Notes: generated by a model not told the origin, from the letters alone. A stretch of 63,162 nucleotides of DNA, filler included, from Neolecta irregularis DAH-3 (GCA_001929475.1; 5 parts of 5 records of this genome joined end to end with filler, not necessarily neighbours in it); one strand, 5' to 3'; positions 4,749 to 63,162 are shown, numbered from the whole stretch's first letter. Made by a program: numbers and translations.

Positions 4749-4943
4749 TTGAATTGTGGACGTTAAAATTTTCGGATATTCCCGGAAGTCGACTTATCAC
4801 TATTTTGAAATGCCACCCACTATATTCTAAAAAAGGGAATATGTATTATTTTGGTGGAAATTAAAATATTGGGATATACTTTCGCGTTAACGCCACATAT
4901 TGCGTTCGGTGGGGTTTAATTCCACAAGTTATTCAATACACCA

Positions 4944-7714: not shown

Positions 7715-7785
7715 ACTGTTTTTATGTGTCGGAGTTTGGATATCGATAAACTTGTTGAAACAATTCGTCGATTTCTCCTCCAAAA

Positions 7786-8797
7786 ATGCCTTCTCTAGAT
7801 GATCCTAGGATAAACCTCGAAAGACTTCGATCTGAGCTTTTGAATATTCCTGGTACTGTTTCTCTAGGCCGTCGGTTTAGATCTCTGTTTGAACTGAAAT
7901 CTCTCGGTGCTGAAGGAAATAATCAAGCCATCGACGTGATTGCCCAAGGTATAACGAGATCTGTTAAACCATGCCAACTGTTTCAAGCATTTTCTGACAA
8001 ATCTGCGCTCTTGAAACATGAGCTTGCATTTGTTTTGGGTCAAACAGGAAATCTACATGCTGCTCAGTCGTTGACCAATATTCTCAAGGACGAATCAGAA
8101 GAGCCCATGGTCCGCCATGAGGTACGAAATTCATAAACTATTGCTGAAAAAAAACGGGCTGCTGAAGCCCTGGGAGCCCTTGGACATCTCAAGAGCGTAC
8201 CACTGTTGAAATATTATCTCGTGAACGATAAAGAAGAAGTAGTTCGACAGACTTGCGAGCTTGCAATCGCCCGAATCGAATGGGAACAATCAGAAGAACG
8301 CAAGCACGAAAATATCCAAAAGAGGCATTGAATCAATTATTACTAAATTCTGATCATCTAGTCTTTTCACCAGCGTTGATCCTGCACCCGCTTTGCCTAT
8401 TAATATCGATTCAGATGTAGAATCTCTCCTAACAACACTCAATGATCAGTCCTTGGAACTTTTCCACAGGTACAGAGCAATGTTTAGGCTCAGAGATATT
8501 GGTACTATTGCTGCTATGGACGCTTTAGCTAGTGGTTTTGATGACCCTTCTGCCCTTCTCAGACATGAAATTGCATATGTGTTTGGTCAACTTTCACATT
8601 CCCATTCAATTCCCGCTCTTTCAAAAGTTCTTCAAAATTCGCAAGAACTGGGAATGGTCAGACATGAGGCTGCTGAAGCTCTTGGAAGTATTGGGACCGA
8701 TGAAGTAATGGCAGTACTGAAGAAATTCGAGCATGATCCAGAGATTGTAGTATCTGAATCTGTGGTTGTTGCTCTCGACATGACAACAGAGCCTTGA
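7786..8797 (+). CDS. LIA1: Deoxyhypusine hydroxylase (4 exons)
   Basis: Four HE motifs ([35 protein letters not shown]) and the SVDPAP linker. Confidence 0.97.
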
Positions 8798-8932
8798 AAA
8801 AAGATATCTGACTTATGTCGTTGTGCACACGAAATCTGTTATTTTCTGACTTGTGCTATACATAAAGGATTGTTAGGACTATAGAATGAGCCAGATACAG
8901 TTCATATTAAGCCGGCGTTGATGTTCAAAATA

Positions 8933-9402
8933 TTAGTTGTTTGAACTGAATTTAAAGCTATCAATTAACATCGCCATACCCATCTCTAATACTTACGCAC
9001 AACGTGGACATTCGTAAAATACAGTTGCTCCTTCATCTGCGCTGCGCAGTTGAAGAGTATGGAAGCTCATTTCTTCATTACCACACTTTGGGCACTTTTC
9101 CTTGATCTTGATTTTTAACGACTTTATCGATTTTCACAGTCAAACCATCGCAGTTTCTTCTTTCTCATTTGTATTCAGTTGATTCACTGCTGATCTCTTT
9201 AGCCTTAAAAGGGAGGGAAATGCCAAAGGAACTGATTTAGTAACGACTTCGATATTGCTGAACTCTTCCTGATCAGTGAATTTCCCCTGATAAACATACT
9301 CTCAGCAGGTAAAACATATTTACAGAGCTCACATTCGATATCTCCTTCTCCAATAACCTCTAGCAGATTGCCGCAATCTGGGCAGAATATCAGCCCGGAC
9401 AT
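8933..9402 (-). CDS. RPA12: RNA polymerase I subunit A12 (4 exons)
   Basis: N-terminal FCPDCGNLL zinc ribbon; C-terminal [32 protein letters not shown]. Confidence 0.96.
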
Positions 9403-9821
9403 TCTGGATGGTTTGATCTCGATCAAGCCATTAAAAAGAATCATCAACGTGACTTCCCAAGAAAAATGACGGGGCGCTATTATCGATAAGCCTTGTTCAT
9501 GCAAACTATTATGCCTGAGAAGTATACCAATGCGATCAAGATATTTTCTTCCATTAAACTAGATACTTATTCAATTGCTGAATATATTTTGCAGTACAAT
9601 ACTTTTTGTGCGAAATTCTAGTTTCCGCCTTGGTTTGCTTTTAAATTTGATGCCCATGCTTTAATCAAGTTGTTTAGTCTTGAGCATGAATATGTAGCGT
9701 ATTTACTCTCTTTGATATAGCTAGAAAGCTACTACTGTGAGTAATAGAGAAAGTCAAAGTTGTTTGATAAATGTCAATATATTTACGGCAGACCAAAGCG
9801 CTAAACACTACTAAAAATCAA

Positions 9822-11651
9822 TCATTTGTGCTCAAAAATACTGCTCAAGTAGAAAGGGTTGTTTCCGTCTTTGAAGATCAGCAAAGGCTTTCGCTTAGCT
9901 AAATCCAAGATCACTCTCGCAAATTCAGAATTCGCCCAAGAAAACCAAGATCTTGTAAACATCCCTAAGTTATTGACATTTACTGACTCATGAATTAATC
10001 CCAGTCCATAAGTACTTTCCTTGATAAAATTCAAGAGCTCAAGGATTTCGTTATCATTATCAGTTGTCGAGATCTGTTGAAGTAAACTCATCGGCCATGC
10101 ATTCCTTAGGCCAACATGAGGGCCGCCGATGCCCTTAAAAACGGATCCCTGAAGATAATAAGGATTTCCAGTTTTCGAGAGGATAGCTTTTCGAGTATTC
10201 TGGTAGACTTGATCTTCTTTTTTCAGGAACCCTAGACGTGGCAGGGAGAGCAAGCTGGGAATGTTGGCATCATCTGCAAGATTAAACTGGATACTAGGAA
10301 ACAATACCCATGATTATTCGCCCTCCATAGCCATCAACTTCATAAGCAAAAATCTTTCCAAAGACAGGATGTTCGAAAATCGCATGTTCTTCAATCCCTT
10401 TTCGAACACTATTACTAGTTTCCTGAGCAAATGTGGCAAGTTCATTCTTTCCAATCTTACTTAACAATTGGCTTATTTTCTCCAGTTGGACAGCCATCAT
10501 CGCGTTCACCGGGATGAGAAATGGAAGGATCGTAGAATCATCGCTGGGTCGAAAGGAGCTTTTTATCAACGAGGTACCCGTATTGACAGGATATCCAATT
10601 CCGTTCAGCGCGAGAGTTTCTGTTGCAAGAGTTGTCGTTCGTTCAAACAAATATTCCGGAAAATTTGGCGAATTGTCACTTGTAAAAGTTGGCATTTGTT
10701 GATCCCTGATAACATCAAAAATACTCTCGATAGCTCTAATCCAAGCATCATCCATGAATTTTGTGTCTCTGGTCGCTGTATAATATTCGTTGGAGAGATC
10801 GAGGAATGACGCAAGACTATCCAGTTCGTATTTACATTCAAAAACGACTTTCCGATTTGGCGGCGGATACACACGGTCAGCGTAGCCACTTCCCGCAGGT
10901 GGAATATTACTTTCCGGCGGTGCATTAAAGGCGTTACAGTATGGTGATGATATAATATAATCTGCCTAAAAGTCAATCTTGTCCTAGTAAAGCTGCGTAC
11001 TTGCATTCGGATTGCACCCAAGACTAGCTTTCTCAGATTCTCGTCATAGTGCAATAGGTCAATATACGGTTGAAGTTGATTTGCCGAATCTCGTAGCCAC
11101 TGGGCATTACTTTCCAGTCAGTCATTCCAACCCCCTTGAGACATTACATGTCGCCCTAAGGTGTGAATTTAACTACAAGGCAGCAGCAATCATACTGTAG
11201 TGATAAATGCCTTTGGATCATCACCCAAGACATACCATCTGATAGTAGTATCCAAAGTGTTGGGAAAACAATTCTCAAACATTCTCGCAAGGTCATTATC
11301 CTTCATTCGTGACGTAACCTCTTCAATTACCTTCTCAACTGCGGGTGACTGGAATGTCCGGCACTCTTTCTTCGGTCGTTGAAAAGCCAGCTGTAATGGA
11401 CCTTATATCAGTCCAATGTAACGGGTTTGACTACCGTTCGAATAAGGGAGATGACGAATACCAGCGTATTGACTATATGGTGGGCAGCGAGCTCCAGGGT
11501 AAGGAGCAGAAACATCCTGATATTGGGATATACGAGAAGGAGGAGGCCAGTTGTCGAAATTGTATTCATTTAAATTATCGTTCGATTTGAATGTAAGAAG
11601 CATGAAAATCACGAACAATATCAACATCCCGACTCTTTGCCACTTGCGCAT
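9822..11651 (-). CDS. Glycoside hydrolase family 125 (DUF1237, Mug157-like) with N-terminal membrane anchor
   Basis: FENCFPNTLDTT, ECKYELDSLASF, SFRPSDD, AYEVDGYG, DDANIPSLLSLP, GGPHVG, FTRSWFSWANSEF. Confidence 0.93.
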
Positions 11652-27289: not shown

Positions 27290-27389
27290 NNNNNNNNNNN
27301 NNNNNNNNNNNNNNNNNNNNNNNNNNNNNNNNNTTAATTAATTAANNNNNNNNNNNNNNNNNNNNNNNNNNNNNNNNNNNNNNNNNNNN
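27290..27389. other. Artificial assembly linker
   Basis: N44-TTAATTAATTAA-N44, 100 bp, stops in all six frames. Confidence 0.98.
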
Positions 27390-36657: not shown

Positions 36658-36757
36658 NNNNNNNNNNNNNNNNNNNNNNNNNNNNNNNNNNNNNNNNNNN
36701 NTTAATTAATTAANNNNNNNNNNNNNNNNNNNNNNNNNNNNNNNNNNNNNNNNNNNN
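36658..36757. other. Artificial assembly linker
   Basis: N44-TTAATTAATTAA-N44. Confidence 0.98.
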
Positions 36758-38117: not shown

Positions 38118-38390
38118 AATCAGCGGTTAGGTTCTTTTGGCGTTTGAGGTATAGGAGAAAGTATTATTGGACACAAATGTGACTCGAATGAAAATGTGCA
38201 TTAATTATATGTTTTTTGGTGGTATCAACTGTGCCCTTTCTCTGAATTATGTACTTTCAAGCATTCGACTAACAGGGTAGTAAAGACAAGCCCGTAAATA
38301 ATCATTGTCACGCGCAGTATACGAGTTTCGTGTAGAGTTGTCTGGATTGTTGTTTCTGGGTGAGTATGGTTGTATTGCCTATGTACTCCA

Positions 38391-38500
38391 ATAAATTACG
38401 ATATTCAAGTATAAATTTGATATTCAAGCATAAATTTGATATTCAAGCATAAGATACTCGAGCATAAATTTGATATTCAAGCATAAATTTGATATTCAAG
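38391..38500. repeat. 19-bp minisatellite (ATAAATTTGATATTCAAGC), about 6 units
   Basis: Directly visible tandem array between convergent 3' ends; one shortened unit. Confidence 0.92.
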
Positions 38501-38532
38501 TAATCATGATATTTGGGCGACTGGCAAACGCT

Positions 38533-39724: not shown

Positions 39725-39919
39725 TGTGGAATAAAAAGGTGGCAATATGATCGGGAGATGTGCGACGTTTTAAAGCTAATCAAGATTGGTGAGCCGAGGC
39801 TAACGTGAAAAAAGCCACATTCTCAGCCCCATTGCTAGTTCTAGTCCCGATTCAGTCATTCCAGTCAGCTGTGTTCTCTGCTCATATATCCCCATCCGGC
39901 AATAAAGTCGGCAATTAAG

Positions 39920-40450
39920 CTCAGCGGCGAATTGCGCCTCCTCCCGTCCTGCCCGTCCCTCCCGTTCCGCCCGTCCTGCCCGTCCTGTTCGCGCGGCAGA
40001 CGGTATAGAGCGCGCGTGGCCGGTTCCGTAGACACCTGCGCGCGAAATATCAGCCGAGGCGCCCTACTGCGAAATGGAGGTGCAGGCGTTGAAGCTATTC
40101 GCACTCCCGTCCCGCCCGCCTCTCCCATCCCGCCCCTGCCTCCTCTCCCGTCCCGCACGTCCGGTCCTGTCTGGCCTATCCTGCACGTCCGGCCCTGTCT
40201 GGCCTATCCTGCACGTCCGGTCCCGCGCGTCCCTTCCGCCTCGCCCGTCCCGCTCGTCCTGCCCGTCCCGCCCGTCCCGCTCGTCCCGCCCTGCCCGTCA
40301 TGCCTGACCTGCCCCTCCCACTCATCCTGCCCGCCTCACGTGCCTCTCGCCCGCCCATCTCTCCCGCCTCTCCCATATTTCCTGCCTGGCTGGCCCATCT
40401 TTCCTGTCTCCCACACCCATTTGGCCTCCGCCCGCCTGTTCAATATTGGC
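39920..40450. repeat. GC-rich low-complexity element (CCCGTCC arrays), probably transposon-derived
   Basis: Arrays of CCCGTCCYG, exact duplication of CCTGTCTGGCCTATCCTGCACGTCCGG, and a unique core near 39990-40105. Confidence 0.75.
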
Positions 40451-40564
40451 AAATTGGCTATTTGGGTCTTGCCTTTTATGGATCACCTGTCTGCCCTGTA
40501 GATTGATTCAATAGCCTGTTTAACTAGTGGTCTACTAGTAATAATCTGCAAACAATAAAGTCTC

Positions 40565-41600
40565 CTAGTGAAAAAAGAAAACCACTGAACATACAAAGTA
40601 TACCAAAATAAACCTCATCAAGGTCCTATTTCCTATTCCAGAGTCGCTTTCGGAAACTGTAATAATATCAATCGTGCTTATATCAAAATGGTTTCCCACG
40701 ACGCTATTCCATAATCGAGATTGAGCTTTATTGGTTCCAAAGTTCTTCCCATATACTCTAAAGAGCACAAATGACACCATGTCGACAAGACATTTCACAA
40801 AAGGAGACCGTCCACTATCGCGCATATGATGGTAGAATTTGGACTGGGTATTTAGAGTGGGATCAGTTGCAGAAATAATCGGTTGATCGGACGGTACTGT
40901 ATCATAACGTACTCTTCGTTGCCGTATGAAACGATGAAAAGGTAAAAGTCTTTTCCATGGATAAACAATGACTTCTTTATTGGATCAAAAACGGTAGTGA
41001 AGTCTTTACCGATGTTGTGGCTGAATATATCGAGAAAAGCCAGTGCAATTATGTCTGAGAATTCCGAAGGTCCTGGCCATGATTTGAGGCCAACGGCGAT
41101 TTCTTTATCGATCGAATGTCTAGGGATTTTGCGAATGAATTACAGGAATATTTCAATAACAAGCATTCCTCGGCACATTTCTCTATAATTTGTACAAAGG
41201 CATCGTTAATTCCCTGAGCAAGAATAGCGGCCGATTCGCTTTCATCCGACCTAGTTTCCACCTCTGTGAAGTAATCGAAATATTAGGCGGCGCAATGGAG
41301 ATTCGTATGAAGCACGATCGACCACAAGATCTTTGACAACATGATGTAGGGTAATGGAGTGCGTAGAGTAAGGTTGCGGTATAAGCCTGTAGAGGAGAGT
41401 TGGGTAAAATCTCTCCACCACGGCATCAAGCCCTTTTCGCAAGGATTGTGCCGCTCCAGCTTTTCCTTGCTGTCTCTGAAAAAGCCACAACATTGTTGAT
41501 GCTGCTGGGAAGAGTCATCTGCGGGGATTTCTTTGGAACAAACCTATCTGAACCCAATCTAAATAGAACTACCCTTAATGTTTTCGTTGGACAGACCCAT
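40565..41600 (-). pseudogene. Fragmented coding-like sequence of unknown family
   Basis: Successive protein-like segments in shifting minus frames (LHHVVKDLVVDRASYE; AAILAQGINDAFVQII; FDPIKKSLFIHGKDFYLFIVSYGNEEYV); no recognisable domain. Confidence 0.35.
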
Positions 41601-41752
41601 GCGGAGCTTCAAACCCTCTGCAATATCTACTTCACTCGTCTCTCTTATTCGGACATTGTGAGTATCTGACCTCTCTGGTCTTCCACTGAGTCTTAAGATC
41701 GTATAGTAGCCAAGGGTCGTTAATAGTAATAACAGTTGGTATTAATATACAG

Positions 41753-42036
41753 TGTTAGGCCTAGCGCGCTAGTCGCGCTGGTTGCTACCCAAATAGCCAT
41801 CCTTGCGCGCCCTGTCCGGTCATCTGACTGATCCCTGTGGAACCCTTTCCACAAGGGAATCCCAAGTCTTGGACTGGGAGGGCGCCCACAGCTTGTGGCA
41901 TCCTCTATGTCTTACCCTGCTTGTACCGTTGTGTGGGGGCGGTGGGACTTGATAGTTCCCATAGACATGTCCTCTGACGTATTTCTAAACTCAACCACGA
42001 TAGATTATTTATTACTCCTTGACCCATTCAATAACA
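41753..42036. mobile_element. Candidate solo LTR (284 bp)
   Basis: Bounded by TGTTA...TAACA; flanks ATACAG/GTATAG are only an imperfect TSD. Confidence 0.5.
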
Positions 42037-43504: not shown

Positions 43505-43680
43505 TGCGATATATACGTAAAAATGAATATGGCATGCATACAACATGTGCATATACGCAGAAATGAATATAGCATGCACAAAATGTGTATATGCGTAGAA
43601 ATGAATAGACAGTGGTTACGACGTCCGCATATACGTAGAAATGCATATAGCATTCATACAACATGAGTATATGCGTATAG
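43505..43680. repeat. Degenerate 38-40 bp minisatellite, about 4.5 units
   Basis: ATATACGYAGAAATGAATATRGCATGCAYA..CATGTG repeated; purine-pyrimidine alternating. Confidence 0.8.
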
Positions 43681-43966
43681 ACAGCATCAATATGTAGAGC
43701 AATTAGAACATACAGCAGCCAACACAACAGCTAAATCATGCCAATCAGCACCTATCCCGTCCGTTTGAATCTCTTGCAGAACGCGGTAGCATAGTGTCGA
43801 TGTACCAAGAGTACTGTAGAGTGAAGTAGAGGACGTTAGCATACAATACACAACGCTACACCATCATCCAGCCTCATCGGCCGCCAACCAACCTCCTCGT
43901 TCCCTCTTGCTCTTTTCTGTCCGCCCTCTCGAGCCGCCATACTCTATATTTTGCGTCCTGCGTCCA

Positions 43967-45297
43967 ATGCCCGCGGTCGACAGTACGTAATCCCTGGTGC
44001 TGCTACCGCTCATATTGTTTCTAGAGAATCCTTTCGTTGACGCAGATTCCAAAAACCCCTTCCGCAGATCTCCACTACTCGCCACCAACAACCCATTTAT
44101 CGATGTCTCAGAGCACCAGAGCACTTCCTCTTCGACCCGGTTGACAAAGGTTAAAACTTCTGTGGATTTCTTGGTGCATCCTTTCGCGCCCTAGCGTGTT
44201 GATTAGTCAGCCTGCCTCTTTGTCTGCCGAAAAAGAAGACCAACGCCGGTCCAGAAGCAGATCCACTATCGACCCTGAACATCCGGTTGGCTCTGCAAAA
44301 CCTTCGTCGTCTCGCCTCGCCTCGCCAAGGCAGCGCAGCAACTCAGAGTCTTCAGTCATGGATGACAAAAAGCAACGAGATCGTCTTCAACAAGGCAAAG
44401 ATCTAGACAGGGAAAAAGGGCGCGAGCGCCGTCATCATCGTAAAGAAAAAGAGGAAAAATCCAGATCCTCAAACAAGAAACGCGGCGAGAAATCGTCACT
44501 GTCAAAGAAGAAAGCACCTTTGGATAAGATTGATCGACTGGATGTTACCGGCCTCTATGGCTCTGGCTGTCCATCTCATGCGTTTTATTTATGCTAATGT
44601 CATAGTTCATCATGATGGCCCTTTCGACGCTTGCAATCCCCATCGTAACAAGAACCTTATGCGTGCTCCTGTGGCAGCTTTCCCGGAAGACAGCGCTAGC
44701 AATACTCTCAAAGGTGCTGGAAAGATTCCAGCACTAAACACGGATCAGTTTTACGGAGATCGAGATCCAGAAGCATTTAATGATTTCTCTGCAGGTCAAA
44801 ATACTGGTATTCGCTCGGAAACCAAATATAGACCTGGTCTCACTATTCATGCTGCTAGCTTTGATCCATCTCGAAATACCGAGCCAGTTCATGGCGACGA
44901 GTCTCTTGGACTTGGAACTTCGACCTTCCTTGAAGGCGCACCAGCAAGCAGGGTTGCCATGGAACGGCGAATTAGTGAAGAAGAATCTAATGGTCAAAGC
45001 AATAAGCTTGGAAGAAGCAAGAGCTTGGCCCAAAGATTCCGCGGAGTCAAATACGAAGCACCTGGTAGACCAGTTATTTCTCCTGGCAGTGCTGGCACCG
45101 CTAAAATTGGATCACCACCTTATTATCTCAACGACGAAATGAATCCGTTCGATGACATGAAAGATACCAGAGTCTCTGCCCATGAGAATACAAATAGTTT
45201 TCCTCTCACTACCGGGTCTCCTCCTAGAGGTGGTGCCTCTTTATTGTCTCGTGTTCGAAGTCTCAAGGTCAGTAACGCGCGAGGTCGAGATAAATGA
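43967..45297 (+). CDS. PAL1: Pal1 cell-morphology / endocytic protein
   Basis: Three N-terminal NPF motifs; LDKIDRLDVTGLYG, FHHDGPFDACNPHRN, HGDESLGLGTSTFLEGAPAS. Confidence 0.93.
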
Positions 45298-45596
45298 ACG
45301 ATGCATGTATGCATATCGGTCTAGATGATGGAGTTTCTGTTTGCTTTTCTCGATTCTTCCTAGTCTCATTTTCTTCTTTCAATATCAAGGTTTTTTCTAC
45401 GAGTCGATCGTTTTGTTTTGAAGGGCTAGGGTTGTTCTCTATCAAGGCTAAGTTTATGATCACTCTTTAAATCAAACGCTCTGTTGTATACCATAGATGA
45501 TTATCTTATAGTGGTCACGCGACTACTTGGAAAAGGTAAGACTGAGCATACCCCACCTTGCCACCTTGAACAGATTACTAGTGACTTTTATCCGCT

Positions 45597-47817
45597 ATGC
45601 CGTCGACCGCCAAGAGGCTTGCTCAGGTCGCCTCCCATATCTCCAATGCACAAACTTTGGTTTCAAACAACAATATAACGTACCACGATTTGAACCCTAC
45701 TGTTTTCCTACCACGGGCAGCGGCCATAGAGCCCAAGGCCCCAGCGATTGTCCATAAATCCTCTACGGGTCGAGATATCCGTCGTACATATCAAGAGTTT
45801 GCCGATCGTGCAAGAGGACTAGCTTATTTCATTAAACTCAAATGCGGCAATGGGAATATAGGTATTCTAGCACCCAACACACCGTTGCCTCTTGAAGTAT
45901 TCTTTGCGCAAGTCTTGAATCGAATCAAACACTGATCGATAGCGCCCCTGCCGCTGGCCGTGTGTTTGTCGCGGTCAATACACGACTGAAGCAGGAAGGT
46001 TGGTTGGTCTTGTCACCGCACTACCTGCTGACATGAAGAGGTTCAATACATTTTCAGTCACTCTTCATGTGATGTGATCTTTGCAGACCATGAATACATT
46101 CATTTATTGGAAGGATTCAACTGCTCAAGGATAATTCAAGATATTGATGATGATGGGGTTAAGGGTGATTACGAAGCTGCGATACTTGAAGGCCTATCGC
46201 TCGATAAAGGTCGCGGATGGGATGGCCTTGATATAGACACAGTGCACGAAAATGACACATTTACCGTATAACGACTCTCAACCAGCCCGAATTGATGAAA
46301 TAGATCGCCTATACATCTGGAACAACATCAACCCCGAAAGTTGTGACCCTGTTATGGATGTGTTGACATATCAGGGTGTCGAATGTACCTTAAGAGGGAC
46401 ATACCTTGCAGCAATGTCTAATGTAATCGAAAGCGGTCTAAATTTTGCAGATCCTCAAAATCACGGTTGCCGGTATCTGTGGATTTTACCCTTGTTCCAT
46501 GGTTAGTTCTTGAAAAACCCCCAAACTCACACTGTAGCTGTGGGTTGGACTTTTCCCTGGAGTGTTGTTTCTGTTCGAGGCTGTAATTTTTGCCTGCGAA
46601 ACGTTGATTATGATGAGGTTTGGAGGCTCTTGCGCGAGGAGAACATCACCCATTTCAACGCGGGTACAGGGACAATACGCAATAACTAAACATAGCACCT
46701 ACTGTGAATACCATGTTGGTACATCATCCAAAAGCTCAGAAATTGCCTCGCCAAGTTCAAGTTACAGTTGCAGGTGATTGATTCTTTTTGAAAAAGTTAA
46801 CATTAGCTTCACCGCCAAGTGCAAGTTTGTTTAAAGCAATGACGGATTTGAATCTGATGCCAGTCCACGTCTATGGGTAATTCTTTTATATTAGATTACA
46901 AGCTGATAAATAGCCTCACTGAAACCTATGGGTGACACATGGATGAAGATCGCATTGACCAGCAGGCCATGTACCAAGGGCTATTTCATGCCTGAATGGT
47001 TGAATCTTGACAAAAAGGAGATGTACCAAAAGATGGCGCGCCAGGGTCATGGATACATTCTCGCAAAACAACATCGAATTATCAAGGAAAAGCTTGTGAA
47101 AGACGAGAATGGCCATTTAGTTCTCGTTGACGTCCAAAAAAATGGTACTGAAATCGGCGAGGTAGTTTTTAAAGGTTCAATAGCTGTACCTATTTGATTG
47201 ACCTGATAGGCAATATCTTAATGAAGGGATACTTTAAAGATCCGGTGGCGACTGCTAAAGCATTTGAAGGAGTTCGTCTCCGGTTGTATGACTTGAATAT
47301 TGAATATTTAGGGCTGGTTTCATACGGGTGATCTTGCTGGTACGACTTGTATTTGAATAACGGTAACGCGTAGTTTGGCATTCTGACGGCTCTATCGAGA
47401 TCCAGGATAGGAGCAAAGATATCATTATTTCTGGAGGCGAGAATATCTCGACGATCGACGTGGAGTCTTGTATTCTGGGAAATCCTGCCGTTTTGGAATG
47501 TGCTGTGGTTGCCATACGTGACGACAAGTGGGGAGAACGGCCAAAAGCCTACGTTACGTATGGTTTGATCGTCATTTATAATCTAAGGCGCAGACTGAGA
47601 GATACCGCCAAGGGAAAAGTCGCTGGAGAGGATATCATTGTCTGGACGAAGAGCCGAATTGCTGGATTCAAGATTCCCCGCGAGGTAGAAATAGTTGATG
47701 AGCTTCCCAAGGTACCTGATTCCTCTCTGGTTTTGTTCATATCGATAGACCTCGACGGGCAAAGTCAAGAAGCATGTTTTGAGGGTGCTTGCTCGAAAGG
47801 GGATGTCGGGCAATTAA
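45597..47817 (+). CDS. AMP-binding acyl-CoA synthetase (AAE7-like), about 14 introns
   Basis: YTSGTTSTPKGV, LPLFH, YGLTETYGP, GWFHTGDLA, DRSKDIIISGGENIS, LPKTSTGK; PTS2-like RLAQVASHI. Confidence 0.93.
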
Positions 47818-48007
47818 ACATGGTTTTATTTATTCATTGAATATATCTGGACTTGACCATATTTGTAGTATTTGTATGCCATTCTGGATGTTTTAGAGTG
47901 ATGCGATATATTGCGGGTTGATGGAGGCACCCACGAGACCGGGTTGCTATCTTCCCTAGGACCCCATAAACACCAACATTGGTAGCCAGGCTATCTTTGA
48001 TCTATCC

Positions 48008-49799
48008 ATGTTTAGCCGCGGAAGCTCGAAGAGAATCCAGAATCTACTCCCTGGGCCTAAGCGGCTTGTTGTTGCGAATAACGATATGTCTGAACCTGGC
48101 GATACTTCCAGTTGCCAAAAGCCTTTATCGTTTCGGGATGCTCGTCGGCCGAGGACCGTGGATCTGTTGGAAGATCACGAACCAGTCTCGTTTGCGGCGA
48201 TGCTTCCTTCAGAGATTCTGCTATCGATTTTCAAATTCTGTACTTCACCGGCAGACCTGCGAGCCTGTTTGCTTGTATGCAAAACATGGTGTCGCTGTAG
48301 TGTGGATTTACTCTGGCTTCGTCCGTTTCTTTACAAAACAGAATCTCTAAATCGTATAATAGAGACGTTGGATTCCAATTCTACTCTCTTTCCCTACGCA
48401 TCTATGATCAAACGGCTCAACTTGACGATACTTGCCGAATATCTCAAAGATACCCATCTTGAATCGCTCTCGAAATGCAACCGTCTTGAGCGGCTCACGC
48501 TGGCTGGATGCAAACAAATCTCTACTGGTCCTCTGTGCAGGATACTGTTGAACAATCAACGTCTCTTGGCATTGGACATTACTGGCCTCGAGTCAATCAC
48601 GGACGATGTATTGCACATGATTTCCGAGTCGTGTCAGGAGATTCAAGGGTTAAATGCTACAAACTGCAAGCTGCTTCAAAATGGAGCGGTTTCTTCGGTG
48701 GCATTGAACTGTGGGCAGTTGCGCCGGGTATATGCCTTGAGAAAAGTGTTCTTATGTTAGGTCAAGTTTAGCGGATGCGAGCTCCTGACGGACGAAGCCG
48801 TCGGAGCGGTGGTTGTGCACTGTCCTCAGCTGCTGGAAATTGATCTCAACAACTGTTCCAAGATTACAGATATGTCTGTTGGTTCGATACTGGAGAATCT
48901 TTCCTCGCTGCGCGAAGTGCGGCTTGCGTTTTGCACGCTGATCAGCGATACGCCGTTTTATACGATGCAAGCGGAATCTTATGACCAGCTGCGGATTCTT
49001 GACCTGACATCGTGTGTTCGAATTACCGACGACAGTATTCAAAACATTGTGCATGCAGCTCCCAAACTACGAAACCTGGCATTGGCAAAATGCAGCAACA
49101 TTACGGACCGGGGGATTAAATATATCACCAAGCTTGGCAAGAACTTGCACTATTTGCACCTTGGGCACTGCAGCGCCGTTACGGACCGCAGCATCAGCTT
49201 GTTGGCCAAGACATGCAGCCGGCTGCGATACATTGATCTTGCGTGCTGCACGCAGATCACGGACAACAGTGTGATTGAGCTGTCGTACCTGCCCAAGCTG
49301 CGGCGGATCGGGCTGGTCAAGTGTGCTAACATTACTGATTTTGCGATTCTGTCGCTGGTGCGGAACAAGCCGTTTGAGGAGAGTGCGCTTGAGCGCGTGC
49401 ACTTGTCGTACTGCATCAACCTGACGCTGACGGTATGCATTTGGAGGAAGGGGGTTTACGGACTAGTCGATCCACCAGCTGGTGAATGCGTGCAAGCGGC
49501 TGACGCACCTCAGTCTGACGGGCGTGCCTGCGTTTATGCGGCCCGAGATTACGCGGCACTGCCGGCAGCCCCCGCCGGACTTTAATGCGCACCAGGCGGC
49601 GGTATTGTGAGTGTTCTGTGCGTGTTTCAGTGCTGAGCGGCGCAGCTGTGTGTTCAGCGGGGCGGGAGTCGGGCAGCTGCGCCACGAGCTGAACGAGCGG
49701 TATGCGGGGCCGCGGGGGCGAGCGGTGCCGCGGCCGCCGGGGTCGTCTAATGCGGGGGAGGATGTAGATATGGACGGGCAGTCTGGATCGGAGGACTAG
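48008..49799 (+). CDS. GRR1: SCF F-box/LRR protein Grr1/Pof2
   Basis: F-box LPSEILLSIF..VCKTW..LLWLRP; LRRs RLERLTL, LGKNLHYLHLGHC, LRRIGLVKC, LERVHLSYC; FCVFSG. Confidence 0.95.
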
Positions 49800-49969
49800 G
49801 ACAGTGTACACATTGAAATACAAGGGCGTTTGCAGGCGAATACAACGGGTGTATATGCGGCGGAGGGTTGGCGGGGGGCGGTATGGCGGTATAAAGGCGG
49901 CGGCGGGGGGCGCACACTCTCCGGGACCAGCCCACCGCACGCACGCACGATGACGATGGGCCTAGCAGC

Positions 49970-52464
49970 ATGAGCGCGGGCATGTCGCGACTGGACCGGC
50001 TGGTGCAGCTGCTGGAGACGGGATCGACGCAGGTGGTGCGCGAGACGGCGGGGCGGCAGCTGGCAGACGTGCTGCGCGCGCACCCGCACGAGCTGCACGG
50101 GCTGCTGCGGCGCGTGGGGCCGTTTCTGCGGGCGGGCCGCTGGGAGACGCGCAGTGCGGCGGCGGTCGCGCTGGGGCAGATTGCAGCGCTGGTGCCGTGC
50201 TGGACGGGTGCCGGGCCTGCGCTGGAACCGCCAGGTATTGTCCCCCGGTGCGTGGGTGCTACTACTTAGGTTGCGACTCTACGCCTTCGGGTACCGCTGC
50301 GCCTTCGGGTGCCGGTTGCGACTCTGCGCGGTCGGGCACAGGTCCTGCCGGCGCAGAACTGCTCGCGCTGGGCGCCTTCGACATCGCCGCCGTGCTCCGC
50401 CACGGGCGCAAGCTGGTCGGCAGCGCGGGCAAGGAATACGCGGTGCACCTCGAAGACCTGTCGCCGGGCGAGCGCCTGCTCCACCAGAAGCACAGCCTCA
50501 AGGCCCGCCTGGGCCTCGGCGGCGAGTTTATGGAAGACGGTTGTGTTCCCCGGCCTGCCGCGCTGACTGCTGACTGCTGCAGACGAGCTGGTTACAGCCG
50601 CCGACCTGATCGCGCCGCACAGCAGCAGCTCGCCCCTCGACAGCTCCCTGCCGCCCGATGCTGCAGTGCCGCCCGCCCCGCAGCCGCAGAATATCCCGCA
50701 GGCGCTCGGGGCCCGCCCGCACAGCACAACAACGCAGATTATCCCACAGGGCCTCAGTGCCCGCCAGCGCAACATGATGAAGCGCAAGGCAAAGCTCGAT
50801 GCCCGCGCAGGACCCACAAAGTACGCCGGTTTGTTTGCCCTGCTCACCCCCAGACACCGCGCGCTCGACCGCAAGCCCGACTCCGCGCTTGCACCGCCCA
50901 ACTGCCCGGACACAGGCACCACCCCCGCGCCAGAGCGCTTCACCGCCACGCCCCAGCCGCAGTCCGCCCGCGTCGTCGTGGCGCAGCACCACCACCAACA
51001 TCCGCCGCTTACCGCCGACACCGGCACCCGCTGGCCCTTTGAGGGCCTGCTCGACATCCTCCTCGTCGACCTCTTTGACCCGCGGTGGGAGATCCGCCAC
51101 GGCGCCGCCCTCGGCCTGCGGCAGCTCCTCCACAAACACGCCGACGGCGGCGGCCGCGTCCTCGGCTGCTCCGCGCTGCAAAACAGCCTGAACAACACCC
51201 GCTGGAAGCAGGACCTCGTCTGCCGCCTGTGCTGCCTCTTTGCGCTCGACCGCTTTGGCGACTACATCGCCGACACCGTCGTCGCGCCCATCCGCGAAAG
51301 CGCCGCGCAGGCCCTCGCGGCCCTCTTTGCGCACCTCGACCTGGCCTCGATCAGACTCACGTACAACGTCCTCGCGGCCCTGGCGCTGCAGCACGGCGGC
51401 GCGCCCAAGATCTGGGAAGCGTCCCACGGCGGCCTCCTCGGCCTCAAGTACCTCGTCGCCGTCCGCAGAGACATCGTCCTCGCCGACGACGCCCTCCTCG
51501 ACGGCATCGTCCACGCGGTCGTCTCCGGGCTCGCAGACGGCGACGACGACGTGCGCTCGGTCAGCGCCGCCACGCTCGTCCCCGTCGCAGACGAATTCGT
51601 CCGGCAGCGGCCAGACGCTGTAGACGGCCTCATGGACGTCGTCTGGGAGTGTCTCGCGGAAATCAAAGACGATCTCAGCGCCAGCACAGGAACAGTCATG
51701 GACCTCCTCGCCAAGCTCTGCTCCTTTCCCCAGGTCTTGGACTCGATGCAGCTCAAGGCAGACCTCGACCCGCAGTATCCCCGTCCTGGTCTCCCCCCTC
51801 TCACCCCCTAGGTACTCCTTCCGCGCTCGAATCCCCCGCCTCTATCCCTTCCTCCGGCACACCATCGCCAGCGTTCGCTCTGCCGTCCTGCGCGCTCTCC
51901 TCACCTTTATCGACATGCGCGGCGACGCCTGGATCGACGGCAAAATTCTCCGCCTCATCTACCAAAATATCCTCCTCGAAACAAACGACGTATAATTCTC
52001 CCCCTGCTCTCCCTAACTCGCAGAATATCTCAGAATTGTCTCTCGAGGTCTGGTCCGCCCTCGTCCGATCAAGCAGCCAAAACTCTTCCCCGCGTTTCCT
52101 ACAAGCATTAATGCCCCATATAGAGCCTCTATTCACTCTACTCCTCACACAAATCAGTGGTCCCAGGACTCCAGAGCCTCTCGATGCAACCCTCCTACTC
52201 CGCCCAACCGGCCAAGTCTACCAAATACCTAAACCCTTCAGCCTCCAATCACCCTCTTCAGAACCTCCCAAAAAACGTCGGAAAAATACAAAAATAGATT
52301 TAGCTCCCCATACGCACAACATCGATGCTCCAATGATCCATGGTGATATCGAACTCGTGGGCCTCGGAGCCGTATTGAGAGCACGGATTTCAGCTGCGAT
52401 TGCCATGGGCCGCGCCATTGCAATGTTTCCCGAACCAGACGCGTTTAGAATTTTCGAAAATTTC
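49970..52464 (+). CDS. MOT1: TBP-associated Snf2 ATPase Mot1, N-terminal HEAT region (truncated at gap)
   Basis: SRLDRLVQLLETGST, LSARQRNMMKRKAK, WEIRHGAALGLR, LDRFGDY..VVAPIRE, DDLSAST. Confidence 0.96.
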
Positions 52465-52564
52465 NNNNNNNNNNNNNNNNNNNNNNNNNNNNNNNNNNNN
52501 NNNNNNNNTTAATTAATTAANNNNNNNNNNNNNNNNNNNNNNNNNNNNNNNNNNNNNNNNNNNN
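52465..52564. other. Artificial assembly linker
   Basis: N44-TTAATTAATTAA-N44. Confidence 0.98.
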
Positions 52565-55500
52565 TTTTTCATATTACCCGAATTAATGGGGGGGTAACTT
52601 TTTGGGGGGGTAGGATTATGGGGGGGTAGGATTATGTGGGGGTAGGTTTGTATGGGCGGAATTTTTAATCTCAGACTTATGACAGTAATTATATTTTTAC
52701 CTCTATGTTGGATATGGGGGGGTATTATTTGAAGGGGGTGGGTTACTTCAGTCAAATGTATTGTAGTATAAGTCCTTTTTGGACCTGTCTTTTGGTTAAG
52801 TTTAGTCTTTATGACTTGGCTTTGGGTAAATTTTTGGTTATTACTCTCACTTGGACATTTTTTCAGCATGACCGAACTTTTTATAAAATTAACTTTAGAT
52901 AATTTCACTATAATAAAACCTTTATCAAAAGGTATTAATTTGCGGATCGCCACTGGGACTTGTCGTCCCATTCTACTCCATAGGCTCCTATAAGTCAGAG
53001 AACTGACTTTAGAGTAGTAATAATCACATCCTCTGGGCCACTTGGTGCACCCGTTTCTGTGACATTGCCCTTTGCCACGCCTGCCTTTGCCACTTTCTGC
53101 AGGTCGCCGCTTGCTCTCAGCGGGTCTGATTGGGACGTTCTCGCTTTTCCCCCAGCTTCTGGTGGGATTATTGGGTCTTTTGCACTTAGTATTTGTAATG
53201 GGACACTGGATCATACCCCTGGGTCTAATTAATCGTTCTCCGATAAAGAACGACGGGCATTGAATTGGGATGTGGTACAGTGAGTTGCAGGAGATGCAGC
53301 CTGACTTTACACCTGGTGGTGTAATCACTCCAGTCACTGTCCCTACCGTTAATCTTATCGTGTCTCCGGTATTGACCCGTGTATCAGACTTGCCACGAAT
53401 TAACCATTGCACCGGCCCTTCTTCAGGTTTCCGGCGTGGGGACTTTGGCCAGGTTTCATAAACAGAGACCCTTAGGTTTTTGAACCTTGATCGAATTGCC
53501 TTAAGGATTTGCACATTCGTAAAGTTGATTCGACCACGATCAGCTGGATTAATCGTAAATTTTAGCATCTTAAAGGGGGCCCAGTCAGCTCTCGCCTTTG
53601 CCGGCATGGTCCACTCAAACTGTGAAGCCGTATTATCCGGCCAAAACATTGTACCTGCAGTAGTTCTGCCCAACTTTTCCAGCATAAAGACTTGCTCGGC
53701 CTTAGACGGTGCTGTAACCATCAACATTTCTTTAAGAAATGGTTGAATTTCGCAGTTCGCATACTTCGGGTTCAGCTTCTCAAGGTGATCTCGAATAAAT
53801 GATATCGCTTCAAGGTATGACCATCCACGATGCTTAATTAACATGTATTCGTTACATGCCAGGCTTTTCACCTTTTCTCTAACTTGCCCAATGAACTCAA
53901 ATTTCGACGGTTCAAGAACTTTAGTCAGGGTGTCCATTGCATTTGCATGGATCGCTGTCATGAATGCTTCAGCAGTTTGTGCCTGCTCAGCATTATCACA
54001 AAGGATCTGGCGTTCCGGCAGCTCTTCAGTCCGAACCACTTTTGCATATGATGCCTTTGGCTTTAAGGTACCATCTTTGGTCAATATATTTGCTACACAC
54101 GTTAATTCTGCTTTAACGTGGTCCATACCTGGGGGTATGGATTTGTTCAGCTGGGCCTCTGCGAACTCAACTTCTGGGGGCTCAATACTCTTTCCACGAG
54201 ACTGTGCATCCCATTCTGCCTCACGCTTCTTTGATCGAGTAGAGGGTTCAGTATCCACATCCATATCCACAATGACCTCAAGATCACTGGTCTCATCATT
54301 CGAGAGAGGCTCTTCAAATGCATCTCTCTGGGCAAGTCTCTCAATCTTTCGAAGGACTGCAGCCAATCTTTTTCCCGCCGGTACATTATTCATCAGGGTC
54401 TTACAGGACTTGTCCGACATTGATTTCAACTTAGGGAACATCTCAAGCATCTGGGCTCGAATTTGGGTCGTACGCCCATTACAATGGGCGATTTGATTAA
54501 TGAGGTTCGCAAGAGTCTCACTTTCTGGGCCGATCGTGACTCGGCCCCTCTTCGCAAGTCTCTTGAACTCTTTAGTTGCCTGCATTGCAACTACAGGCGA
54601 AGTTCGGGGGTCAACAGGGGCAGATGAGGTATCCATATAGTAGAGGATAAATAGGCGCTGTAAAAATGCGAATATGGGTTCAGGTGGGACATAGACACAT
54701 GTATTTATGATAAACTTAGTCTTTGGTTCTAGTTTGCGGCTAATGCTATCTCGCCTTATCTTGGGTCTAATTTTTGACTTTGACGTGTTTATCTCTAATG
54801 CATAAAACCTGCATTTTCTTAGCTTACACTTTGACGCTGGCATACATGTAAGCTTTTTAAATAGATAATCCCTGTTAACTATTTTATTGCCTTGGACTTG
54901 GTTCGAGTCCTTTTCACTCAAGTTCACTATGGTCCAGATGTAATTCTGGACCAATTTATTCATGAAGGGGACATTATGCGGCCCCTTTACTGGGTAATAA
55001 TATATCATAAAACCAATATATTGGACTTGCTTTTTATGTAGATCTAGACTTTTCAGTAAATCTAACGCTAGATAAATCAAGTTCATCATGATACATGGGA
55101 TTTTTTCAATTATCCCTTTACTCCCGCATTTTTTCCCTTTACTTTGTACTGGTTTTTCTCCAGTTAAGTATGGGGTGTTCTCAGGCAATGTTGGGCTTTG
55201 GTTTGGCATATTCAGAGTTACAATGTTCACTGGCACACTCTTTAGGTTATGACGTATTGGTCCGTCAGTAGGTTGAGGTCTCTTTTCAACTAGATTTTGG
55301 GCTAAATCATTCAAGTTTATTAAGGTATACTGGGTTCTTTTATTCATACGCTCCTGTTTGCACATTGTATGTTGTCCATGGACTTGGTTCACTAACTTTG
55401 TCCTATTATGGCTCTGGGTCGGTTCATTGGGACTTAGCACCTCATAAGGCAAATTCGCAGATTTATAACCTATACACGATTCAATATATTGAACCTGTAT

Positions 55501-55737
55501 TTGGGATCTATTATGTACTAGATCCCTAACAGTAATATTTGCCGCCAGATAATATCTCCTTTGGTCTACCAGTGTGATACCGGTCATAAAGTGGGAACCC
55601 TCTACGCTTACCACTGGACACTGAGAGAGCCCAAATGTCATGCAGTATCCAGTGGGGGATACATCATATTCGGCCCCCCTGATCCCCACGGGTGGGTACT
55701 CCGAACTGCAACGTGTATTCAAAAGTTGTGCAGTCAT
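52565..55737 (-). mobile_element. Long intronless ORF with Gag/LINE-ORF1-like core; probable retroelement, open into the gap
   Basis: SYAKVV motif, RRM-like segment, then a CX2CX4HX4C knuckle CISCNSLYHIPIQC (53257-53298); A-rich coding strand; no RT, endonuclease or integrase motifs visible. Confidence 0.65.
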
Positions 55738-56515
55738 GGGTTAATCTTAGTGGTTCTCCACTAGCGAAGGCCTTTACATGGTCTAGATGGGTCATAATGG
55801 GGCACCGGCCAAAGCCTTGCTTACTGGCTAGGCTTTTTAGGATATCTTCTTGATCATATTCATGATTCATTAGTATATCACTTTTGTAGGACAAATCACT
55901 ATGCACACTTCACTAAGTTTACCATTCCATGTCTGGCATCCAGTGTCAGACAAATTCAACTTACAACCTCATGTACAGATTACAAGTCTGGTAGGTATAC
56001 TCTAATTGCTCTTTTTGGGTCAGGTCTCTCATAGGTCTTTAATGGGTCTATAGGTTTATTCATTCCACATTATCACATCACTCAACATGCTTAGCTGGGG
56101 TGTGTACATCACTGCATTAATGCATAGAGATGCTTCATGGGTAGAGTCTCATAGTCTACAGTTTGTCATTTGCCAGTTTTCCAATCTGTTTCCACCATGC
56201 ACCATGTGGGGGTTGACATTTAACTGGTGATTCACACTCATGGGTCATTAACTCAGCAAAATCCTTCATATAAGAGGATATAAGGTCTAGGGTCTAGCAT
56301 ACAGGTTCTATGGTCAAATTCGGCCTCTATGGGTCAACCTCCCCATGTCATTACTCAGATCCCTTGGTCTCCATAATTTTATGAAGTATACTTTTCAAGA
56401 ATTACCACCGTTATCCAAGTAGTAAAAAGTACATACCACTCCCGGAGGGAACTATAACTGATTTAATGAGCCATTCGCAGTTTCACTGTACAAGTTGCTT
56501 ATACTTAGACATGCA

Positions 56516-56615
56516 NNNNNNNNNNNNNNNNNNNNNNNNNNNNNNNNNNNNNNNNNNNNTTAATTAATTAANNNNNNNNNNNNNNNNNNNNNNNNNNNNN
56601 NNNNNNNNNNNNNNN
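56516..56615. other. Artificial assembly linker
   Basis: N44-TTAATTAATTAA-N44. Confidence 0.98.
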
Positions 56616-60843: not shown

Positions 60844-63162
60844 ATGAGTGCAATCGACGAGTTTGAAAAATTGCTTCAAGCGCTTTCCGCTTCCAAGAAT
60901 GGAATTTCAGCGTCGAAAATAAGCAGTATTAATGCGCTTGCTATTTCAAATGTTCAGGTCTGTATTCCTTTGCAGGGCTATGGTTATTATTCTTATCGGG
61001 ACCTGGAAACCATAGGCAAGGTTGACAGTATCCCATTCATGAGCCGATCTACCTACCTATTCTTTTAGCGGGTAGTAGTTTAGCTAACTCTTTGTAGGAA
61101 AGTTCGCGATTCGTAACCCTACTTTTCAAGCATTTCAAGAAAACTCCTGGCCCATTAAAATTGGGTGTCCTTTATGTTGTAGACTCGATATCTCGTGCTT
61201 ATTATGACCAAGCACGAAAAACCGGTCAGCCTTTGGATTCTACCGATGAGGGTACTTTTAGCGGAGGTCTCAGTAGGATTACAGCCGTAATCGAGAGTTT
61301 AATGAACGATGTAATTCTACACGCTCCTGAAGATCACAAGGTATGCCTGATTTTTTGACTCGAGTATCCGGGAGCATGAAGATTATGCGCGCTAGTTTCG
61401 AAAAGCAAAACATTTCCAAAACGACGTATATATCGATTGCTCCCGGTCCAAACATTCCCCGTCCTCTTATAAGCCCAGGAATTTTTGCTGACGGGGTTTC
61501 TTCTGTTATTTAGGACAAAGTAAAGAAATTATTAGATATCTGGGAAAAGGCCGGCACGTTTCCTCAAGATATAATGAACTCAATCCGCACGAAACATTTT
61601 TCTTCAGCTCCACTGGATTCCCCCGTTAGGACCAAACAAGGTTCGTCCGTTGAGCTCTATACCGAAGCACGGTTTGACCAAGTTGTGTAGTTCCATCGCA
61701 AGCAAATTCAGCATCAAATTGGACTTCAAATACTCAGCCTACAGCGCCGGCCAATACTGGTGCTATATTACAAGCGCTCGCAGCGTTGGCAAAGCAAAAA
61801 AATCAAACATCGGCAACAAATGTCACGCAGCCACTCCCCAATACGAATCAGTCTTTACTCTCCAATAACCAGTCGTCACTCTCGAATCAGTCTTTACTCT
61901 CCAATAATCAGTCGTCACTCTCGAATCAGTCTTCACTCCCCAGTAATCAATATTCACTTCCCAAAACGAATCAATCTTCACTCTCTAATACGAATCAATC
62001 TTCGCTGCAACAGCCGCAGAGGTTGCCGATCGTTGCACCACAGGTCCCTTTGACACTCGTTCAATCTGGTATATTGCCAGCGGCAATGTAAGTGCATGCC
62101 GGGTCCTATTTTCACATGTTGTAGTCCAAACCCTATGTCTGAGAATGCGACGCCATTTGCCCAACAGCAGGCTCTGCTTGCCCAGCTGCTTTTGTCGCAG
62201 GGGGTTGCTATAGACCAGATACAAGCCATTTTGTTGGCGAACTTGACACAGAATCAACGAGTGCAACCACCCATAAGCGACCGCGCGGGCGTTCCAGTTT
62301 TCTCGAGTGCAAAGCAACGCTCGGCTTCGCGTTCTCCTTCTCAAAACAAGTCCTACTCTCGGTCGAGGTCGAGATCCCGGACTCCGCCGGGGCGAAGGCA
62401 TTCCCCCAGCCGTAAGCGCAGACGCTCGCCGTCGTATGATGAATACCGCGGCCGGAGTCGCAGCCGGTCCCCGAGACGAAGGTCGAAAACGAGAACCCGG
62501 TCACCGAGCCGGTCTCCTAGCCCTCGGGGTCGAGCCCGAAGCCGGACGCCGCCTCGGCGCCGGGCCAGTGACAGACGTACGTCCAACGCTGTGCAGGCTA
62601 ATGCACCCGTGGCGGACAACAGCAAGGCTGTGGTGGCGCATCTGTTTGAGATGGACGCGAGCCTGGGCGCGGGAAACATCAAAGGTACCAACCCGCGCGG
62701 CGGGGCAGGCTGACGGGCAGTGCACAGCCGGACGCTGTTCATTGGCGGAGTGTCCTACACGTATGTGCGGCCGGGCGGCGGCTGACTCAGGCGGGCAGGG
62801 ACACGCAGCAGAGCATGGAGGCGCTGTTTGGCCGCTACGGCGCGGTGCAGAGCTGTGTGATCAACCACGACAAGCGCCACGCCTTCATCAAGATGCTGCG
62901 CCGCGAGGACGCCGTTGCGGCGAAGCACGGCCTGGACGGGCTCGCGTCGAGCGTCTCGCTGCGGGTGTGTTTCTGCGCCGCGATCCCTACCCCTAACCCC
63001 TCAGACCCGCTGGGGCGTCGGCTTTGGGCCGCGCGACTGCAGCGACTTTTCGACGGGGACGAGCGTGATTGCCATCTCGCGGCTGACCGACGCAGACCGC
63101 AAATGGCTGGTCACGGCGGAGCACGGCGGCACCGGCGGGCGGCCGCTGGTCGGCGGAATCGT
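60844..63162 (+). CDS. NRD1: Nrd1/Seb1 RNA-binding termination factor (CID, RS-rich, RRM); runs off the window
   Basis: CID KLGVLYVVDSISR and KLLDIWEK; RS tract; RRM SRTLFIGGV..KRHAFIKM; TRWGVGFGPRDCSD. Confidence 0.95.
61843..62005 (+). repeat. Coding tandem repeat (NQSLLSNNQSSLS-type) in the Nrd1 linker
   Basis: 39-bp unit CGAATCAGTCTTTACTCTCCAATAAYCAGTCGTCACTCT x2 plus degenerate 21-bp units. Confidence 0.85.

Follow-up and report, generated by a model that had tools for sequence, protein, structure and literature searches.

The 63,162-nt window analysed here, from Neolecta irregularis DAH-3, consists of five draft contigs that are not neighbours in the genome and are joined by N44-TTAATTAATTAA-N44 linkers. 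At the right end of its third contig (36758-52464) lies a GC-rich island that covers the end of a GRR1-like gene and most of the 5' part of MOT1, and in which the strand presented changes from G-rich to C-rich within MOT1. We consider it somewhat probable that this island marks a long-lived meiotic double-strand-break hotspot, with the break zone at about 50240-50750 in the 5' part of MOT1. The host of the island is an early-diverging ascomycete and the genes are fungal. The parts of the island and the two genes are as follows.

49230-52060 (no strand): GC plateau at fourfold-degenerate sites, about 2.8 kb long, with sharp edges near 49230 and 52060.
48008-50334 (+): left arm, G-rich, T over A at silent sites; introns and spacer are also G-rich.
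50240-50750 (no strand): central zone with G about equal to C at fourfold sites, located by bins and the cumulative curve; the putative break zone.
50337-52464 (+): right arm, C-rich, A over T, cut by the contig end.
48008-49799 (+): GRR1-like F-box/LRR gene, four exons, open spliced frame.
48728-48760, 49433-49478 and 49607-49645 (+): GT..AG introns of the GRR1-like gene.
49970-52464 (+): 5' part of MOT1, 782 codons in five exons, cut by the contig end.
50235-50269, 50540-50582, 51775-51811 and 51990-52023 (+): GT..AG introns of MOT1.

A domain search finds F-box-like and LRR (LRR_4/LRR_6) domains at 47960-49585 and DUF3535, the MOT1 middle domain, at 51079-52464. Homologues of the largest MOT1 exon are named TATA-binding protein-associated factor mot1, and the best named relatives among the matches listed (Rhizina, Saitoella, Lipomyces, Taphrina) are only 47-57% identical; this ascomycete thus has no near kin in the database searched. 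In both spliced models the introns measure 33-46 nt without an exception to GT..AG. The promoter gap between the two genes is a spacer of 170 bp (49800-49969). Since the contig stops at 52464, both MOT1 and the right arm are truncated.

The first-pass annotation of this DNA had described a GC peak over about 49400-52000 that affects exons, introns and spacer alike, and this is borne out by 300-bp windows and by fourfold sites. GC rises from 0.43-0.50 outside the island to 0.73 at 49850-50149 and is at least 0.62 throughout 49400-51949; the background of the window is mostly 0.38-0.49 in 1-kb bins. At fourfold sites, GC within 49230-52060 is 0.76-1.00 in every bin except one (0.69, 13 sites), compared with 0.42 in 21 open reading frames (ORFs) chosen by hand outside the peaks from the 52 ORFs listed. 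The island introns and the spacer have a GC of 0.52-0.68. The rise at neutral sites thus extends over 1-3 kb and includes fourfold sites, introns and spacer, as in a peak of GC-biased gene conversion. The ratio of observed to expected CpG is 1.13-1.16, hence there is no CpG depletion.

The strand asymmetry is as pronounced as the rise in GC. All-site GC skew, the imbalance of G and C on the strand presented, is +0.29 at 49700-49999, 0.00 at 50300-50599, -0.27 at 50750-51199 and -0.49 at 51950-52249, and the cumulative G-C curve has its maximum at 50445. The maximum-likelihood change point between G and C at fourfold sites falls at 50334 to 50337 (2-unit support 50313-50349), that is, 365 nt into MOT1 and close to position 50300, where the switch had been placed before. 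Fourfold counts are G124:C20 on the left (49250-50334) vs. G79:C228 on the right (50337-52300), with a Fisher p of 6e-35. When all fourfold sites are taken, the left side has G196:C58 and A42:T70, and the right side has G84:C238 and A46:T28; the difference in A/T asymmetry has a p of 0.0015. The bin at 50000-50249, mostly MOT1 exon 1, shows G45:C8, and the central bins at 50250 and 50500 have fourfold skews of -0.02 and 0.00; G and C balance each other at fourfold sites over about 50340-50750. The complete fourfold base counts are A10 C18 G117 T8 on the left (49250-50249) and A17 C169 G47 T8 on the right (50750-51999). On the left, pyrimidines became purines and on the right the reverse happened, which requires transversions (e.g., C>G) besides transitions.

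The skew extends past the GC plateau on both sides. Fourfold counts are G71:C38 and A32:T52 in the outer left flank (48008-49229), and G7:C29 and A21:T15 in the outer right flank (52061-52464); the flanks differ in G versus C with a p of 2e-6 and in A versus T with a p of 0.047. They agree with the earlier description of a left flank rich in G and T and a right flank rich in C and A. The bin at 52000 has C21:G1 at a fourfold GC of 0.51. The left arm runs through the GRR1-like gene in full and on through the spacer and the first exon of MOT1, and spans about 2.3 kb, with the background reached by about 48000; the right arm measures at least 2.1 kb, the contig end cutting it. Further left, at 47000-47900, a positive all-site skew is not mutational, the fourfold counts there being G15:C18.

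Non-coding sites follow the same course. Introns 2 and 3 of the GRR1-like gene have G16:C8 and G16:C7, the spacer G66:C42, MOT1 introns 1 and 2 at the centre G11:C9 and G14:C15, and MOT1 introns 3 and 4 on the right G5:C20 and G4:C14. These counts agree with the G-rich GRR1 intron and the C-rich MOT1 intron near 51775 noted in the first-pass annotation. Its statements on codons also hold. In MOT1 exon 1 all 13 Leu codons are CTG and all five Thr codons are ACG, and at 51420-51600 all nine Leu codons are CTC. The reported dominance of GTC and GCC is found at 51001-51774 (Val GTC 20/22, Ala GCC 17/33), where Leu is CTC in 33 of 43 cases. The G-left/C-right polarity does not change under reverse complementation; it is therefore a property of the locus itself, and the orientation of the contig is irrelevant.

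The island is real and not an artefact. A contig of 6621 nt from run X1 covers 43930-50550 with 0 differences and crosses the switch, as does a contig from run X2 that extends from 48760 to beyond 50232, also with 0 differences. The pieces of the latter, 48760-49431 and 49646-50232, leave out GT..AG intervals, so this contig is probably spliced RNA (the run is labelled 'DNA?'). X1 word depth is 446.5 in each bin over 44094-50381, and the locus is single-copy and contiguous. X1 and X2 are public runs that share a study, and the source sample may itself be X1, so that their support is only partly independent; contig-derived depth is unfit for ranking expression. The sole variant listed in the island is C/A at 50718, with A in 321 of 838 depth units in X1 and A only in X2; the sample or samples carry two alleles inside the island. 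The organism B contigs are identical over the island and hence yield no substitution spectrum.

The first-pass annotation had named a chimeric or contaminant assembly as an outcome that would overturn its reading. An assembly chimera, a contaminant or a foreign insert is suggested by the make-up of the window, which is a concatenation of draft contigs, and by the contig end 400 bp past the island. However, the rise and fall of GC are gradual and belong to a single contig, two conserved fungal genes keep their reading frames and GT..AG introns across the island, and both the 6621-nt DNA contig and the spliced RNA-like contig match across the switch without a difference. A GC-rich foreign donor would not be expected to change in mid-gene from G-ending to C-ending codons. 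The probability of such an artefact is close to negligible.

The first-pass annotation had also stated that transcription direction and codon optimisation fail as causes, and here it was right: the flip lies within MOT1, and exon 1 goes against a C-biased background. At fourfold sites the coding strands of the 21 background ORFs have G550:C728 (skew -0.14, range -0.38 to +0.33), opposite to the G bias of MOT1 exon 1. A related proposal is a cryptic bidirectional promoter or another transcription-linked element in MOT1, with divergent initiation at about 50300-50700. The sign of the flip agrees with the bias toward C that fungi show at promoters and 5' ends (PMC3315797), and the C-biased coding strands of the local background are in line with it. 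Nevertheless, the published effect is modest and unconnected with a rise in GC, and a negative correlation between GC skew and GC content was found in that study (PMC3315797). The proposal leaves fourfold GC values of up to 1.00 unexplained and requires antisense transcription over the entire GRR1-like gene, and the spliced RNA-like contig passes through the centre with no sign of an internal start. We regard this explanation as unlikely. The R-loop skew of mammalian CpG islands was rejected as a model. The R-loop rule calls for a non-template strand rich in G downstream of the start site, whichever the direction; here the sign is opposite, as the strand running away from the centre is C-rich.

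A published pattern that the first-pass annotation had overlooked is the dependence of skew on position within the gene. Coding strands in most unicellular fungi favour C at the 5' end and G at the 3' end, and fourfold sites and untranslated regions do so too (PMC3315797). The island could be an extreme case, visible because the GRR1-like gene and MOT1 lie in tandem, 3' end next to 5' end, and a G-rich 3' end followed by a mostly C-rich MOT1 is the predicted arrangement. When all sites are counted, a G-to-C change is seen at 11 of 12 promoter-containing junctions vs. two of six convergent ones (p 0.02), on a rough ORF-based gene map with one junction dropped for N and three ambiguous regions left out. 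At fourfold sites, with the MOT1 junction left out on purpose, the six ordinary tandem junctions show a mean change of -0.04 and only three of them are positive (63 kb, the same rough map); divergent junctions are positive and convergent ones negative, which is what a uniform coding-strand C bias predicts. Moreover, the first 365 nt of MOT1 are G-biased, the reverse of the published 5' pattern, and the GC rise is left unexplained. Since the ordinary tandem junctions are without a fourfold flip and the MOT1 5' end is G-biased, the island is discrete rather than the tail of a gene-end gradient. Gene-end skew, now tested, turns out not to be the cause, and its extreme form is quite unlikely to account for the island.

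A general promoter-centred flip was also considered and discarded: at fourfold sites it reduces to uniform coding-strand C bias, and it supports no model. The all-site flips at 43651 and 47951 disappear at fourfold sites (G24:C23 and G15:C18, respectively) and are thus attributed to amino-acid composition. The gap upstream of the Pal1-domain gene (43511-43675) holds four AT-rich repeat units, each of about 40 nt, at the first of these flips.

The pressure on the island reaches the MOT1 protein. Spliced MOT1 was aligned with 12 of 120 listed homologues (named, diverse picks), using the first 1000 residues of each. The share of Gly, Ala, Arg and Pro is 0.34-0.54 in seven of ten 50-residue blocks (49971-51546) and 0.26-0.30 in the other three, compared with 0.22-0.37 in the orthologues. 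Conversely, the share of Phe, Tyr, Met, Ile, Asn and Lys is 0.04-0.20 vs. 0.14-0.23 in the 12 orthologues, and it is lower in all ten blocks. In conserved MOT1 columns Lys is replaced by Arg, and Asn by Gly or Arg. Beyond 51550 the composition is similar to that of the orthologues, so the distortion is confined to the island. The protein has moved to amino acids with GC-rich codons, as expected of a bias that overrides weak selection. The GC rise and the shift to Gly, Ala, Arg and Pro are consistent with GC-biased gene conversion.

A meiotic break hotspot would join both properties of the island in one mechanism. Biased gene conversion in heteroduplex tracts on both sides of the break would bring G and C to silent sites, introns, spacer and weakly constrained residues; the rise in GC requires a GC-favouring force, and biased conversion is invoked as the established one. 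Resection of 5' ends after the break would leave single-stranded the plus strand on the left and the minus strand on the right. If damage or mis-repair of the exposed strand loses C and A (C>N, A>N), the plus strand would become, over many generations, G/T-rich on the left and C/A-rich on the right. By a second and purely inferential route to the GC rise as well as the skew, nick-directed mismatch repair that removes the invading strand, together with G.T-specific repair, may favour G, not C, on that strand.

Mutation data from human hotspots have the corresponding geometry. The forward strand is single-stranded on the left, and de novo C>N and A>N mutations occur in the flanking 2 kb (PMC7615360), with the central +/-100 bp without asymmetry (PMC7615360); the strand asymmetry was confirmed for non-crossovers (PMC11922761). 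In the island, C and A are depleted at fourfold sites, mirror-wise, on the strand whose 3' end points toward the centre. The reach is on the scale of 1-2 kb per side, around a symmetric centre of about 0.5 kb.

A fixed, efficient replication origin at the centre is the other cause considered by the first-pass annotation. Leading strands in yeast are A/C-rich and give a G-to-C jump, so the sign agrees (PMC3459929). The jump at S. cerevisiae origins, however, is 9% and decays over about 20 kb, half the inter-origin distance (PMC3459929), while the jump in the island amounts to about 56% over all sites, exceeds 100% at fourfold sites and gives way to the background within about 2.3 kb on the left. 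Amplitude and reach were also the grounds on which the jumps at C. albicans centromeres, of 74% over 3 kb, were judged not to stem from replication (PMC3459929). In addition, an origin leaves the GC rise unexplained, and there are three such features within 63 kb. With the right sign and the wrong amplitude and reach, the origin alternative is disfavoured and has a low probability.

The other two of these features are cut by sequence ends. They are listed here with the contig joins.

36758-38117 (+): right half of a second GC peak, GC 0.58-0.66, C-rich, cut by the contig start.
62100-63162 (+): left half of a third GC peak, G-rich, cut by the window end.
27290-27389, 36658-36757, 52465-52564 and 56516-56615: N runs, the contig joins.

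In the first three 250-bp bins of the second peak the fourfold counts are C23:G5, C26:G7 and C18:G6, and GC at third codon positions falls from 0.77 to 0.51. In the third peak GC reaches 0.70 in a plus-strand RRM gene, which we take to be Nrd1/Seb1-like; its fourfold counts are G86:C51, against a C-biased background. The introns there have G16:C12, G19:C10 and then G8:C17, which suggests a switch near 62950. All three islands visible in 63 kb, two of them partial, share the G-left/C-right polarity. The first-pass annotation had held that random polarity of peaks would refute it; both further peaks agree in polarity, but both are truncated and only these two could be checked.

The centres of the peaks also contain short repeated sequences, as follows.

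50269-50339 (+): tandem duplication with degenerate copies, two of 26 nt at a spacing of 45 (85% alike) and two of 18 nt at a spacing of 18 (89% alike).
50386-50401 (+) and 63115-63130 (-): exact copies of a 16-nt word, one in the central zone of each of two islands; their reading frames differ.

The tandem duplication is located exactly at the switch, in a variable MOT1 linker that is gap-rich in the ortholog alignment. It fits with error-prone repair at a break site, as a single case. The longest word common to the peaks has 17 nt, and at least 16 nt was reached in one of 300 second-order Markov simulations. The 16-nt word is possibly a cis motif or a product of chance, and is only a lead. 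Another motif, GTRTATATGCG, found in the MOT1 spacer and the repeats upstream of the Pal1-domain gene, was rejected: it has three matches, and 16 of 100 shuffles reach three.

The composition reports a resection-type geometry and not the stage of the cell. The DNA might instead be broken, nicked or laid open as a single strand time and again at one place outside meiosis, for example, at a mitotic fragile site or a site bound by a sequence-specific factor, and be repaired from the homologue; the 16-nt word that two peak centres have in common agrees with this. Nothing points to a site-specific nuclease or binding factor, though, and homologues that differ must often form heteroduplex if biased conversion is to raise GC, a situation typical of meiosis. 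We rate a non-meiotic origin of the island as improbable.

Several observations weigh against the meiotic break hotspot. The centre lies about 400 bp inside a gene and not in the promoter gap at 49800-49969. Hotspots of S. cerevisiae sit in promoter gaps, and some fungi are without GC bias in conversion. The edges of the plateau are sharp and there is no exponential decay, which simple conversion-tract models predict for GC (PMC3020949). The right arm has the same sign as the usual coding-strand C bias, only its size being unusual, and the second half-peak is likewise skewed in the background direction, which makes it a weaker case. There is only one complete island, and two partial peaks would agree with it by chance with a probability of 0.25.

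The first-pass annotation had proposed an extremely stable recombination hotspot that has rewritten native genes and suggested that such sites may be mappable from sequence alone. Its proposal is supported in part, by the native single-copy genes, the neutral sites affected and the match in sign and scale. Composition, polarity, reach and neutrality are observed, and the sequencing runs bear them out; breaks, conversion, resection and stability over long times are what we infer from them, and such sites may recur across the genome. The broader idea, that GC islands with a mirror skew preserve meiotic break hotspots as fixed fossils readable from sequence, is possible rather than probable and is put forward tentatively. 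Hotspots with GC peaks are known, and so is mutation that differs between the strands at breaks; what seems to be new is their fusion into a fixed, near-saturated mirror skew within native fungal genes. Full-text literature searches that did not extend to supplements and subscription journals yielded no paper in which a recombination hotspot or GC peak of a fungus carries a fixed strand flip between G and C, and the portion of PMC5698624 available contains nothing on strand skew.

The remaining observations concern other parts of the window. The region 39900-42000 is a high-copy repeat with many variant copies, with an X1 word depth of 1980-11021 over four bins vs. about 446 in the flanks. Within it lies a C/T-rich array of 9-nt period (CCCGTCCyG-like, 39931-40339), with GC up to 0.76 and a skew of -0.48. 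As a GC island of the MOT1 type the region was rejected, since it is a low-complexity repeat instead. An AT-rich tandem array of 19-nt period (TTTGATATTCAAGCATAAA-like, six overlapping copies) occupies 38378-38519, between convergent genes (38117, 38536), and one RNA-like contig leaves out 53 nt within it. The small contig at 52565-56515 opens with G-run repeats (GGGGGGGTAGGATTAT-like, 52590-52720). No Pfam family matches its 1058-aa ORF (52566-55740, minus strand), and the best Atlas neighbour, with a score of 0.78, is unconvincing; the ORF is an orphan, possibly part of a mobile or terminal element. No tRNA genes or Rfam families were found anywhere in the 63-kb window.

Hotspots are normally mapped by crosses, population data or break sequencing. 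If mirror-skewed islands are indeed fossils of break hotspots, a single genome would give hotspot positions, the width of the break zone (about 0.5 kb here) and the reach of resection (1-2 kb here), the GC peak marking the site and the mirror skew the geometry. Such a signature would permit mapping from one assembly in organisms that cannot be crossed. The 16-nt word could then be a cis element that holds the islands in place. The hotspots of this lineage would have kept their places until silent sites were saturated and conserved proteins, MOT1 among them, had been rewritten, so that break-linked pressure could move essential proteins off their conserved sequence. Likewise, strand-asymmetric mutagenesis, seen in humans as rare de novo events, could shape the standing composition of genomes in which hotspots are stable. 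The proposal also offers a testable alternative cause of unexplained local skews in fungal genomes.

Among known systems, gene-position skew (McLean and Tirosh 2011, PMC3315797) shares with the island a G-rich 3' end followed by a C-rich next gene, and effects at fourfold sites and on amino acids. In the island, by contrast, the switch lies inside MOT1, the amplitude is many times larger, and the skew is coupled to a GC peak. Yeast origins (Marsolier-Kergoat 2012, PMC3459929) have the same sign of the jump and differ in amplitude and reach. The jumps at C. albicans centromeres (PMC3459929) resemble the island in their large amplitude (74%) and short reach (about 3 kb), but there is one per chromosome and their direction, as deduced from the text, appears to be opposite. 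The island lies in expressed genes and occurs three times in 63 kb, unlike these centromeres. C. albicans centromeres are gene-free.

The runaway GC of gerbils (PMC7403616, PMC6573468) is an extreme local rise that alters conserved proteins against selection, as the island does. Those regions are mammalian, and the term 'GC skew' as used for them appears to mean GC enrichment and not an asymmetry of G versus C.

Sun et al. (2012, PMC3390403) described GC-rich regions flanking and within MAT in Cryptococcus, which are kilobase GC peaks like the island. Crosses and population data tie these peaks to gene conversion, with tracts of 0.56-2.1 kb (PMC3390403). The Cryptococcus peaks lie between genes, and the part of the report available mentions no strand flip between G and C, whereas most of the island is coding and its silent sites are far more extreme.

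The closest parallel in geometry is the mutagenesis at human double-strand-break hotspots (Hinch et al. 2023, PMC7615360; Palsson et al. 2025, PMC11922761). Geometry and sign are shared with the island, as are the reach of 1-2 kb per side and the symmetric centre. In humans, PRDM9 hotspots are short-lived, and the effect shows as rare de novo mutations that hardly mark the standing composition; in the island, it would have become a fixed, near-saturated composition of native genes.

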